The translations under genes were made by a program, and so were the position numbers. From an uncultured Gammaproteobacteria bacterium (GTDB lineage: Bacteria; Patescibacteriota; Microgenomatia; Daviesbacterales; UBA10151), in NCBI GenBank assembly GCA_964415615.1, contig CAYQAW010000001.1, positions 40,593 through 104,592 on the forward strand: DNA of 64,000 bases, read 5' to 3'. This document shows positions 16,706 to 20,370 of this stretch, in pieces. How positions within the stretch are numbered: position 1 is the stretch's first letter; every line of letters starts with the position of its first letter. Below the pieces are notes generated by a model. The model did no database searches. It was not told where the DNA came from and saw nothing but the letters and a program-made list of their open reading frames with translations.

Positions 16706-17449
16706 TTATAGGTCATTTGTCAAATTCTGCTGTGGCTTTGTTCCAGATTCAATAACTTTAACTGCTATTTCCTTCACCTGTCTGGTTGCATCTTCCAAAG
16801 CTTTTTTCAAAACTTCAATCTCCGTATTCAACCTGTTATTTTCTGTAGTTAAGTTGTTAATTTTTAAATTTAAAATATCTTTTTCTGACTTTTGTTCCTG
16901 CTCTTTCATTTTCCGTTCTGTTTCAAATTTGGAAACTAATTCTTTTCGCAGAAGTTCTTGAGCTGTAGATACTGCTTTTTCTTTTTCGCCATCAAATCCA
17001 TCTGTTGTCTTGCGCAGTTGAATCAACTCTGCTTTTTCCTGATTCAGGATTTCCTGCTGATCTTTTAGCTGCTTTTCCCATATAGCTTTTTTGTCAGTAA
17101 ATTCATCTTCTGCTATCTTCCTTCTTCTGGCTGTTTCATATTCATAAGTTTCTTTATTCCTTTTTCTCTCCAGTTCTTCCTGAATATTCCGATCCTCAAC
17201 ATCTTTGTCATGATTCTTCTGTTCCAAACTCCAGGATTCTTTGGTCTTGGTAATCTCTTTTTGCAATAGCTCAAATTCAGATTGAAGATCGGAAAAATTT
17301 TTAAGTAAGGCAGCAAACGGATCAATTTTAGTTGTCTTAACAGTTTCCGTCTCTTCAACAGGTTCTTCAATTGTCTTTTTGCTTTTAACAGTTCTAACTG
17401 CCATTGTGCTGATGATTCTATAGGACATCAGTTGGTTTGTCAAGATCAA
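16706..17449 (-). CDS. coiled-coil protein (hypothetical)
   Basis: 247 aa, highly charged with heptad periodicity (EELERKRNKETYEYETARRRKIAEDEF...). I recognise no enzymatic motif. The true start may be the internal M at codon 16. Confidence 0.45.
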   Translation of the reverse strand: MILTNQLMSYRIISTMAVRTVKSKKTIEEPVEETETVKTTKIDPFAALLKNFSDLQSEFELLQKEITKTKESWSLEQKNHDKDVEDRNIQEELERKRNKETYEYETARRRKIAEDEFTDKKAIWEKQLKDQQEILNQEKAELIQLRKTTDGFDGEKEKAVSTAQELLRKELVSKFETERKMKEQEQKSEKDILNLKINNLTTENNRLNTEIEVLKKALEDATRQVKEIAVKVIESGTKPQQNLTNDL

Positions 17450-17473: not shown

Positions 17474-17722
17474 TTATTGATAGTGGTCGTTTATGTCAAT
17501 AATTTCAATTTTTCCGTCTTCTGTTGTACCGAAAATTACCCTATATTTTCTATCAATGCGAAATGAATGCAATTTCGAATGTTGAAGTTTTAAAATTTCC
17601 GTATGAAGTGAGGGATATCTTGGATTTTCTTTAAATAGTCTTAGTTGCTTATTAAACTTTTTGGTTAGATGATGTTTTTCAAGAAATACAACCAGATCTG
17701 CCCGTAATGGCTTAACGTTCAT
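17474..17722 (-). CDS. type II toxin, RelE/ParE superfamily
   Basis: The C-terminus SFRIDRKYRVIFGTTEDGKIEIIDINDHYQ is the RelE/ParE fold signature. The start is taken at the internal MNVKPLRADL, which overlaps the upstream RHH gene by 11 nt. Confidence 0.6.
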   Translation of the reverse strand: MNVKPLRADLVVFLEKHHLTKKFNKQLRLFKENPRYPSLHTEILKLQHSKLHSFRIDRKYRVIFGTTEDGKIEIIDINDHYQ

Positions 17723-17999
17723 AAAAAGAAGACTTACTAAGTCCTTTAATAACGCTATCAATAAATTTCTTATTGTACTTACCTGTTTTTTCAAAATCGG
17801 CTCTGATCTCTTCTAATGGCTTGGGAACAAAAGGCTCAAACCTGAATTCCTCCTTAGGATAAGAGAGATATCTCCTGAGTATGTTTCTAATAAATTCTGA
17901 ACGGGTTGAAAAACCCTGCTTTTTAGCTTCCATATCTACCTTTTTTGCTATTTGGCCTGGTAAAGAAATTGTGATAGTTGACATAACAATATTTAACAA
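17712..17999 (-). CDS. ribbon-helix-helix (CopG/Arc-type) antitoxin
   Basis: STITISLPGQIAKKVDMEAKKQGFSTRSEFIRNILRRYL is a typical RHH beta-strand plus two helices. It sits immediately upstream of the RelE/ParE gene and overlaps it. Confidence 0.6.
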   Translation of the reverse strand: MLNIVMSTITISLPGQIAKKVDMEAKKQGFSTRSEFIRNILRRYLSYPKEEFRFEPFVPKPLEEIRADFEKTGKYNKKFIDSVIKGLSKSSFYER

Positions 18000-18005
18000 T
18001 ATTTC

Positions 18006-18635
18006 TTAATTTTTGTCAATAACTTGTTTGATTATTTCATATTCAAATCCTTTTCTCATTAAAAACTCAAATGCTTTTTTCTTAAATTCTAAGGGGTCTA
18101 AATTTTTCCAAAATCTCATTTTCTTTTCCAAAGCTTGTTTTGCCAGCTCCTCTTCATTGAACTCTTGACTCTCGACTCTAGTCACTTCCTCAATAATTTC
18201 TTTATCAATCCCTTTTTGGAAAAGTTCTGCTTTAATTGCTCTTATTCCTTTTTGTTTACTCTTCCTTCTTGCTTCTACCCAAGCTTTAGCAAACTCTAAA
18301 TCGTGAACCATCCCTTTTTTCTTTAAATTTTCCACCAAAGCATCTACTACCAATTGACTTATTTCTTCTTTTCTTCTGACTCTAAAATAATCCCTAACTT
18401 CTTTTTCCGAATGTTGTCTAATGCCAAACCATCTGTACATCCTCTCCATTAATTTTCCTACTTCTGCCTCAAATAAAATTTTCTCCAGATCTTCTGGGGT
18501 TATAACTTTCCCAACCACCAATCTTCTATTGACTACTAAATCTTCATCTGCTCCAAATGCAAATTCCCCATCCAAAAATACATTAAATCTTCGTGGATTC
18601 TTTTTTTGTGGCTCTACTGAAGTAATCTTAGACAT
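18006..18635 (-). CDS. recX: recombination regulator RecX
   Basis: 209 aa of three-helix repeats (DYFRVRRKEEISQLVVDALVENLKKKGMVHDLEFAKAWVEARRKSKQKGIRAIKAELFQKGI), located near recA. Confidence 0.8.
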   Translation of the reverse strand: MSKITSVEPQKKNPRRFNVFLDGEFAFGADEDLVVNRRLVVGKVITPEDLEKILFEAEVGKLMERMYRWFGIRQHSEKEVRDYFRVRRKEEISQLVVDALVENLKKKGMVHDLEFAKAWVEARRKSKQKGIRAIKAELFQKGIDKEIIEEVTRVESQEFNEEELAKQALEKKMRFWKNLDPLEFKKKAFEFLMRKGFEYEIIKQVIDKN

Positions 18636-18641
18636 TTATAC

Positions 18642-19145
18642 TTAAGGATTTCTATTAGTAGAAAGCGCAGCTCTAATTCTGGAAAGAGCTGGTGGTCTCA
18701 CTTTTACATCATGTTCCCCTAAAGTATTAACAACTGCTTGAACTATTCGACCAGTATTAATATCCGATATAAATTTTCCTTCAATACATTCATCAAATAA
18801 TCTAGTCTCCGGAGAATCAACAGATTTTATGTATTGATCTTCGAGAACTCGAAACTCATCAGCATTCATGGAACCAAGCTCGCATCCATCAACCTTAATC
18901 CTTCTTACACCCTCAATTTCAATCGAGACACCAGTTCTTGCAAAAGAATGCTTTTCGTTTTCTACTACAATGCAACCCTGCTTTTGACAGCCACCACAAA
19001 CCATATCTTCAGGAACTAAAACCTGTTTTGGAGGAGGCATTGTTGCTCTAATTAGAGGATAACCATTATCACCTTTGACAACTTTAAACTTAACTCCCTC
19101 TGCAGCTAATTTTGTCAGTTCATTATTATCTTCACGTTCTGGCAT
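18642..19145 (-). CDS. hypothetical Cys-containing protein encoded between recA and recX
   Basis: 167 aa: MPEREDNNELTKLAAEGVKFKVVKGDNGYPLIRATMPPPKQVLVPEDMVCGGCQKQGC...DGCELGS...DECIEGKF. I recognise no family. Confidence 0.45.
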   Translation of the reverse strand: MPEREDNNELTKLAAEGVKFKVVKGDNGYPLIRATMPPPKQVLVPEDMVCGGCQKQGCIVVENEKHSFARTGVSIEIEGVRRIKVDGCELGSMNADEFRVLEDQYIKSVDSPETRLFDECIEGKFISDINTGRIVQAVVNTLGEHDVKVRPPALSRIRAALSTNRNP

Positions 19146-19162
19146 ATCTTATATTGTAAATA

Positions 19163-20224
19163 TTAGCTTTCTTCTACCGAACCCTCTGCCTCTTCCTGTC
19201 CCACTACAATTTTTTCCTTACCATCTTTTTGTTTACCCCATGCATCTCTAACTTCTTTTTCTAACTTTTCAGCTTCTTTTTTGTTTTCTTTTAGATAAGC
19301 ACTGCTGGCAGCTCTACCTTGACCCAGTAATTTTTCACCCCATTTTATAAATGCTCCAGCTTTAGTTAAAATCTCCAGTTCTATTCCTACATCCAAAAGC
19401 TCTCCTTGATGTGATATACCATCTTCATTCATATCAAATTCTGCAATCCTAAATGGGGGAGCCACTTTATTTTTAACAACTTTTACCCTATGCCTTGAAC
19501 CTACTACCAAATCTCCTTCTTTAATATTTTCAATCTTTCTAATATCTAGTCTAACGGAGGAATAAAATTTCAAAGCCAGTCCTCCTGGAGTAGTCTCAGG
19601 ATTGCCAAACATCACTCCAATTTTTTGCCTTAGTTGATTTGTAAAAATAACAATTGTATTAGTATTAGAAACAGCTCCAGTTAACTTCCTTAGGGCTTGA
19701 GACATTAAACGGGCTTGCATACCCATGACAGAATCACCCATTTCTCCTTCTAACTCAGCTCTAGGAACTAGGGCTGCTACAGAATCTATCACCAAAATAT
19801 CTATTCCACCTGAACGGATTAAAGCCTCTGCAATTTCTAGGGCTTGTTCTCCCGTATCTGGCTGGGAAATAAGTAAATCATCTAAATTAACTCCAATTTT
19901 TTGAGCTCTTTGAGGATCAAGAGCGTGCTCTGCATCAACAAATGCAGCCACGCCACCTTTTTTTTGAGCTTCAGCAATTACATGAAGGCAAACACTGGTC
20001 TTACCGCTTGCTTCAGGACCAAAAATTTCAATAATTCTGCCTTTAGGTAAACCGCCTACACCTAATGCCAAATCTAACGCTATAGAACCTGTAGGAATTA
20101 TCTCTGTGGTAAACTTTTCAACTCTCTCACCCAAACGCATAATAGAACCTGTACCATACTGTTTTTGAATTTGTGCCATGGCTGCGGAGATTGCAGCTTT
20201 TTTAGCGTCATCATTTTGTGCCAT
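19163..20224 (-). CDS. recA: recombinase RecA
   Basis: Walker [36 protein letters not shown] and the L2 loop are present. A C-terminal acidic tail is also present. Confidence 0.95.
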
Positions 20225-20297
20225 ACATTAACAATACCAAATATATCCCAAAGATCAATACCCCAAAATTACTCTGTATCAATGTATGGATACATAG

Positions 20298-20370
20298 TCG
20301 GGGTGACAAGAATTGAACTTGCTACATCCGCGACCCCATCGCGGCGGTCTACCGATGACCTACACCCCGT
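20298..20370 (-). tRNA. tRNA-Pro (anticodon GGG)
   Basis: The minus strand reads CGGGGTG-TA-GGTC-ATCGGTA-GACC-G-CCGCG-AT-GGG-GT-CGCGG-ATGT-GCAAG-TTCAATT-CTTGT-CACCCCG-A, a full cloverleaf with U33 and G37. CCA is not encoded. Confidence 0.8.

Follow-up and report, generated by a model that had tools for sequence, protein, structure and literature searches.

To our knowledge, the regulation of RecA by small proteins such as RecX, DinI, PsiB and RdgC has been characterized almost entirely in cultured model bacteria, and we know of nothing comparable in the ultra-small bacteria of the CPR/Patescibacteria. In E. coli, DinI antagonises RecX. RecX and DinI are both small, non-enzymatic and expressed with or alongside recA, properties that the protein described here appears to share, and neither is, as far as we know, a Cys4 zinc protein. 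The CinA C-terminal domain (PF02464) is likewise encoded next to recA in many bacteria; the CinA gene, however, is found upstream of recA, not downstream. The recX gene of model bacteria immediately follows recA, and its product works through binding to the filament (PMC9252578, PMC2500204). A possible structural likeness is offered by MqsA, in the N-terminal domain of which a structural zinc, ligated by two CxxC pairs (C3, C6, C37 and C40), is positioned at the loops of a pair of long, twisted strands with a helix behind them; this domain binds the partner toxin (PMC2791442).

The locus analyzed here lies in a stretch of 64,000 nucleotides, referred to below as the window. A first-pass annotation had pointed to a 167-aa ORF between recA and recX, separated from them by 17 nt and 6 nt, respectively, and containing the cysteine-bearing peptides CGGCQKQGC, DGCELGS and DECIEGKF. 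The ORF listing and domain searches agree with this arrangement, and all three peptides are present in the translation, as C50/C53/C58, C88 and C120, respectively. A conserved gene in the recA-recX junction, which is otherwise translationally coupled, would be a natural candidate for a new modulator of RecA or RecX. The features of the locus are the following.

18006..18635, minus strand: recX, 209 aa, the downstream gene of the presumed operon (RecX_HTH2/HTH3 E 2e-13 and 4e-13, NCBIfam RecX E 1e-41)
18636..18641, minus strand: 6-nt spacer from the stop of the 167-aa ORF to the recX start
18642..19145 (stop codon included), minus strand: 167-aa ORF with an ATG start, equal to the NCBI hypothetical protein HYT74_00385 / MBI2085777.1
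19146..19162, minus strand: 17-nt spacer from the recA stop to the start of the 167-aa ORF, without a promoter-like or terminator-like site
19163..20224, minus strand: recA, 353 aa, the upstream gene of the presumed operon (Pfam RecA E 1e-129, TIGR02012 E 1e-150)

A protein-coding gene between recA and recX

The 167-aa ORF genuinely encodes a protein. In frame 0, its codon log-likelihood amounts to 0.33 per codon, compared with 0.29 +/- 0.08 for the long ORFs of the window (n = 33), the remaining coding-strand frames are at -0.39 and -0.81, the opposite strand reaches 0.10 in its best frame, and the GC content by codon position is similar to that of recA. The identical protein HYT74_00385 belongs to a Candidatus Daviesbacteria MAG (Patescibacteria/Microgenomates group). 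Of the co-expression with a recombination/SOS-like module that the first-pass annotation had deduced from the position, the part that concerns recA and recX appears likely: because the genes share a strand, the gaps are short and no terminator-like site was found between recA, the ORF and recX in the window, the ORF is likely to be co-transcribed with both neighbors and probably is translationally coupled to them. The 17-nt and 6-nt gaps leave too little room for separate transcription signals.

A small family with four invariant cysteines

An exhaustive phmmer search of 1.84 billion cluster representatives (E <= 1e-3) returned 15 matches, namely the query itself, 11 family proteins and 3 giant repeat proteins. 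The 11 homologues are 157-202 aa long and align end to end at 21-33% identity, and the family comprises 12 clusters at 50% identity. The giant repeat proteins (P0005, P0009 and P0011), with 4-8 weak stretches each, are highly repetitive and were judged spurious, their scores being sums of many weak repeat matches. A word-indexed homology search retrieved only the protein itself and, with a profile, 3 members. Thus delineated, this is a small, previously undescribed protein family, with the 167-aa protein as its founding member, confined to Daviesbacteria-like CPR bacteria; it is rare, and all lineages carrying it are uncultured.

The failure of the first-pass annotation to assign the protein to a family is borne out by the curated libraries: the 167-aa protein has no match in Pfam, NCBIfam, PHROGs, PADLOC or PDB sequences. 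A Pfam search with all 12 members gave no consistent family, and neither CinA_C nor the NCBIfam CinA models matched any of them. In a PDB profile search, matches were obtained only at the level of the cysteine knuckle and were not significant (C-terminal segment of prolyl-tRNA synthetase, E 0.04; L32, E 0.45). When helix-turn-helix (HTH) domains were sought in the 12 members at E <= 1, the single hit was PF19575 HTH_58 in one member (E 0.18), and HTH-XRE was not found. The literature, searched for a gene lying between recA and recX in Daviesbacteria as well as for LexA and SOS in CPR, yielded nothing relevant.

In the alignment of the 12 sequences, the only invariant columns are M1, C50, C53, V85, C88, C120 and L161, so that 4 of the 7 coincide with cysteines of the query, which has five (hypergeometric P = 5.5e-6). 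The conserved set consists of C50-x2-C53, C88 and C120. Accordingly, the CGGCQKQGC cluster noted in the first pass stands as far as its invariant CxxC knuckle, C50/C53, is concerned; its third cysteine, C58, is found in the window copy alone. The codons of the conserved cysteines are located as follows.

18987..18998, minus strand: codons for C50-G-G-C53, the invariant CxxC knuckle (family consensus C-P-G-C-G-K)
18882..18884, minus strand: codon for the invariant C88 (motif V-x-G-C), three residues past the end of the long hairpin
18786..18788, minus strand: codon for the invariant C120 (motif C-I/L), directly after helix 112-119

Apart from the cysteines, the family is characterized by an N-terminal motif, M-x-E-x-x-I-G-D-P-x-L-Q-x-L-F-E, by F-P-x-P preceding the C-P-G-C-G-K knuckle and by a conserved P-x3-K-x3-A-L in the C-terminal helix. 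Ten of the 12 members are acidic (pI 4.7-5.5). The generic signature of Cys4 zinc proteins, four invariant cysteines including a CxxC knuckle, is present in 12 sequences that are 21-33% identical, and this pattern suggests a single structural zinc ion bound by all four.

Predicted fold and structural likenesses

AlphaFold prediction from the single sequence reached pLDDT 35, and the structural reading rests on the model built from the 12-sequence alignment (pLDDT 84.3, pTM 0.68; 79-84 across five models). This model predicts two parts.

18870..19145, minus strand: residues 1-92, with helix 9-15, a short hairpin 19-24 / 30-35, the FPxP linker, the CxxC knuckle and a long hairpin 56-68 / 73-85
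18645..18869, minus strand: residues 93-167, with predicted helices 95-106, 112-119, 131-144 and 154-163, the last of which carries P-x3-K-x3-A-L and L161

The predicted register of the hairpin would bring C53 and C88 close together. The zinc would tie the long hairpin at its open end, with C50/C53 before strand 1 and C88 after strand 2, to the helical half, which contributes C120.

A fold and profile search had been proposed in the first-pass annotation; Foldseek against the PDB placed MqsA nearest (E 0.17), and no match at E <= 1e-3 was obtained. Against the viral BFVD, there was no meaningful match. In the model, residues 1-92 resemble the N-domain of MqsA (YgiT; PDB 3GN5/3HI2) in topology and appear to follow the same zinc-hairpin architecture principle. 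In an hhalign comparison with MqsA, the probability was insignificant (1.7%), with C50/C53 aligned on MqsA C3/C6 and C88 on C40. The differences are substantial: the family has one CxxC instead of two, its other ligands, C88 and C120, are single and 32 residues apart, C120 comes from the helical half, and an extra 48-residue alpha/beta element is present at the N-terminus, whereas the C-terminal HTH-XRE domain that mediates DNA binding and dimerisation in MqsA is absent. Moreover, the family gene is flanked by recA and recX rather than by an adjacent gene for the MqsR (RelE-like) toxin. Small zinc-finger and zinc-ribbon proteins (ZifS TTHA0897, ribosomal protein L32 and HVO_2753-like proteins) match only at the knuckle and differ from the family in its second half-site and its 160-170-aa two-part architecture. 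Altogether, the family is most readily placed among the small Cys4 zinc proteins, with a hairpin like that of MqsA-N, and would provide a new context for the MqsA-type zinc hairpin.

Genomic context of the carriers

The contexts of the family members are listed below, each in the order recA, family gene, recX unless stated otherwise.

P0001 (window), window / L001: recA, family gene, recX
P0015, L005 and L006: recA, family gene, recX
P0002, L007: recA, family gene, recX
P0003, L008: recA, family gene, recX
P0012, L137 and L138: recA, family gene, recX
P0004, L009: RecA C-terminal tail, family gene, recX
P0010, L136: RecA tail, family gene, 52-aa ORF, recX
P0013, L139: RecA tail, family gene (contig ends)
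P0014, L140 and L141: recA, family gene, 88-aa ORF, recX
P0008, L004: RecA tail, 89-aa ORF, family gene, 153-aa Cys-rich ORF, recX
P0007, L010 (short contig): upstream ORF not RecA

The family gene lies between recA and recX, or beside either of them, in 10 of the 12 clusters, a count that leaves out P0007 (short contig L010) and P0006 (protein only). It is on the strand of recA and recX at all checkable loci; the gap from recA to the family gene is 0-17 nt in nine loci, and that from the family gene to recX is -14 to 18 nt in 5 of 6. As for conservation of the position in related genomes, which the first-pass annotation had suggested checking, the recA/recX arrangement recurs in at least nine other divergent lineages. 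L002 and L003 are nucleotide-identical to the window and so represent the same organism in other runs; they add no evolutionary information.

Some carriers contain extra small ORFs. The 88-aa ORF of L140 (2732-2998) and the 89-aa ORF of L004 (83-352) are homologous (BLASTP E 3e-9), representing a second small family at the recA-recX junction, and have in common the motif PG-x-[IV]-x-G-[ST]...V-[IL]-DFD-x-RD, being located downstream of the Cys4 gene in L140 and upstream of it in L004. The extra small ORFs of L004, L140 and L136 have no Pfam match at the curated cut-off, the only hit being DA_N for the L140 ORF (E 0.11). The 153-aa Cys-rich ORF of L004 (906-1367; CDERCSC ... YCCEC), between the family member and recX, has no Pfam match and is not detectable as a Cys4 family member (E 0.28).

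Absence from close relatives and a variable junction

A RecX-anchored scan covered GTDB species genomes (45 loci) and JGI metagenome contigs (80 loci), among which 56 Daviesbacteria-like loci have both recA and recX. The Cys4 family was found in none of these 56 loci. In 36 of them recA and recX are adjacent or overlapping, 7 have a recA-recX gap of 31-160 nt (the four inspected hold no ORF >= 40 aa), and in 13 the junction is occupied by other, mutually unrelated inserts, some on the opposite strand. The closest relatives of the window, with RecX 79-81% identical, are among the loci lacking the gene; in two of them, L012 and L057, the stop codon of recA and the start codon of recX overlap (ATGCCTAA). 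The first-pass annotation had named two observations that would count against it, namely absence from close relatives and a clear match to a factor such as CinA_C. The former was made, in all 56 loci, the closest relatives included, and the latter was not. The Cys4 gene is dispensable, given its absence from 56/56 anchored loci, including the closest relatives.

Among the genes found in the longer gaps are a HAD hydrolase on the opposite strand, a PMT_2 glycosyltransferase and several unknown ORFs. A search of the gap ORFs of non-carriers for cryptic family members (hmmsearch with filters off) gave E >= 0.28, and this possibility was rejected. In L021 (4438-4941, minus strand) and L027 (4431-4943, minus strand), a hydrophobic ORF of 167-170 aa, probably a membrane protein and without a Pfam match, lies between recA and recX on the opposite strand. 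L028 and L063 have a 556-nt gap at the same spot; as no ORF >= 40 aa is listed in the L028 gap, it may hold a degraded copy of the hydrophobic ORF. On the metagenome contigs L077 and L078 (3499-3774), the junction contains a free-standing 91-aa GIY-YIG nuclease (PF01541 E 7e-16). The RecA ORF of L019 (2563-5001, ~812 aa) contains an intein (Intein_splicing E 6e-11, LAGLIDADG_3 E 1e-23), and the RecA ORF of L022 (2305-4716) is similarly long. A relation of the Cys4 family to the RecA intein was rejected, the family HMM missing the long RecA ORFs of both loci. The recA-recX junction is thus a variable slot that collects unrelated and selfish genes, and this case illustrates how little guilt by association can prove: since unrelated genes occupy the junction in other lineages, position alone does not imply function.

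Evolution of the family

The RecX proteins of the other carriers are 63-71% identical to that of the window, and in a neighbour-joining tree of RecX the carriers appear in at least three separate places among non-carriers, which implies frequent loss. Between carriers, the family proteins are 23-38% identical, compared with 53-73% for RecX and 66-92% for RecA; the Cys4 family evolves much faster than its neighbors, with the four cysteines still invariant. Divergence of the family correlates with that of RecX (Spearman 0.55, P = 0.01, 21 pairs). No family match was found in phage records, plasmid records or IMG/VR, and no terminal repeats flank the gene. Together, the correlation with RecX and the lack of phage or plasmid matches and of flanking repeats indicate vertical descent inside the operon. 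An origin from a mobile element was rejected on the same grounds, the only flanking repeats being chance-level ones of 10-16 nt. The simplest scenario is an old acquisition in an ancestor within the Daviesbacteria, followed by vertical descent in the operon, rapid change and frequent loss.

Possible functions and alternative explanations

The interpretation that we favor, tentatively, is that the Cys4 protein is a putative zinc-stabilized, protein-binding accessory factor of the RecA-RecX module. A mostly acidic, non-enzymatic Cys4 protein would act by protein-protein contact, as a dispensable modulator of the balance between the RecA filament and RecX; speculatively, it could be a DinI-like counterweight to RecX or a zinc- or thiol-dependent switch. 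The acidic pI and the lack of a significant HTH match favor protein binding over DNA binding, and the protein probably is not a DNA-binding regulator. A more specific version, in which the protein is a third component of the RecA-RecX module of some CPR bacteria that binds RecA filaments or RecX in a zinc- or thiol-dependent manner and tunes recombination, appears rather unlikely; such tuning could consist in antagonism of RecX or in coupling of filament stability to redox or metal status. The modulator interpretation is countered by the absence of the gene from 56/56 anchored loci, and the junction may be merely permissive. When carriers and non-carriers were compared for carrier-specific columns in RecX and RecA, only RecX residue 2 emerged, at a borderline level, because the overlap of the recA stop with the recX start constrains this residue in non-carriers; no signal of co-adaptation was detected. 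Direct kinship with the known modulators was also considered. The three tandem three-helix repeats of RecX (PF21982, PF02631, PF21981) were not found in the Cys4 protein by Pfam, and both a diverged duplicate of RecX and a homologue of DinI were rejected, each with an hhalign probability of 0.2% (against the RecX alignment and against a DinI sequence, respectively).

It is almost equally probable that the junction is simply a permissive, well-expressed slot and the Cys4 gene a cargo unrelated to recombination (for example, a stress, defence or antitoxin-like gene) that is kept by descent. The other unrelated inserts in 13/56 loci, some of them on the opposite strand, are consistent with such a slot, as are the selfish elements at the locus (the GIY-YIG gene of L077/L078 and the LAGLIDADG intein of the L019 RecA), the extra small ORFs beside the family gene in L004, L136 and L140, the dispersal of carriers over at least three places of the RecX tree among non-carriers, and the fast evolution of the family (23-38% identity against 53-73% for RecX). 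Furthermore, the synteny of RNase Y, HU and TrpR is conserved locally anyway, so that positional fidelity is weak evidence for function. Against a mere cargo, the family gene keeps to the recA/recX strand with very short gaps at all checkable loci, whereas other cargo is in part encoded on the opposite strand; it was found outside the recA-recX junction in 0/10 clusters with identified flanks, and it shows neither a mobility signature nor a phage or plasmid homologue. We consider it improbable that the protein is a DNA-damage-induced effector, co-induced with a recA that is assumed to be damage-inducible and inhibiting division or replication at a checkpoint in a role like that of SulA, YneA or ChiZ. 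Its place in an operon with recA, its small size, rapid divergence and lineage restriction, and its cytoplasmic, acidic character without an enzymatic signature would all suit such an effector, but it is similar to no known checkpoint protein. Checkpoint effectors are typically small, lineage-specific and fast-evolving, and are usually non-homologous between phyla.

An MqsA-like antitoxin or regulator, with a zinc N-domain binding a toxin and a helical C-domain binding DNA and possibly autoregulating the recA operon, is highly improbable. The C-terminal half does form a helical bundle in the model, and toxin-antitoxin genes occur nearby (RHH and YoeB/ParE-like in the window, HicA in L009), but the hhalign probability of 1.7%, the single CxxC pair, the acidic nature of most members and the lone HTH match (PF19575 HTH_58 in 1/12 members, E 0.18, with no HTH-XRE) argue against it, and in most loci neither an MqsR-like nor any other toxin gene is adjacent, the flanks being recA and recX. 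Finally, the annotation as merely a 'hypothetical protein' and the lack of an obvious Shine-Dalgarno sequence in the 17-nt spacer could suggest a spurious ORF or an annotation artefact in an AT-rich genome. This is effectively refuted by the frame-specific coding signal, by 11 homologues that keep the start, length and motifs, and by the confident predicted fold; an obvious Shine-Dalgarno sequence is also missing at other genes of the operon. The accessory-factor interpretation remains the one that we tentatively prefer, with the passenger gene as its main rival.

Surroundings of the operon and record titles

Upstream of the operon, a tRNA-Pro (GGG) gene (20297-20369, minus strand) lies 72 nt from the recA start on the same strand. 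The sole promoter-like site upstream of recA (20309-20281) overlaps this gene, and recA and the tRNA may therefore share a transcript. Immediately 3' of recX, a type II toxin-antitoxin-like pair is encoded: the gene of an RHH/CopG protein (17712-17999, minus strand; PF01402 E 4e-7) overlaps that of a weak YoeB/ParE-like toxin (17474-17794, minus strand; E 1e-4, below the Pfam cut-off). In the relative L009, recX is instead followed by a HicA toxin, so that the variability extends to the region downstream of recX. Between the toxin-antitoxin pair and RNase Y there is a 247-aa ORF (16706-17449, minus strand) with many charged residues, possibly coiled-coil and with no significant Pfam match.

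Many third-party MAG records of the anchored set, including L011, L014, L015, L023 and L030, are titled 'uncultured Gammaproteobacteria bacterium', and L040 is titled 'Candidatus Woesearchaeota archaeon'. The RecX proteins of these records are 55-79% identical to Daviesbacteria RecX and the synteny is the same; the record titles are unreliable as taxonomy.
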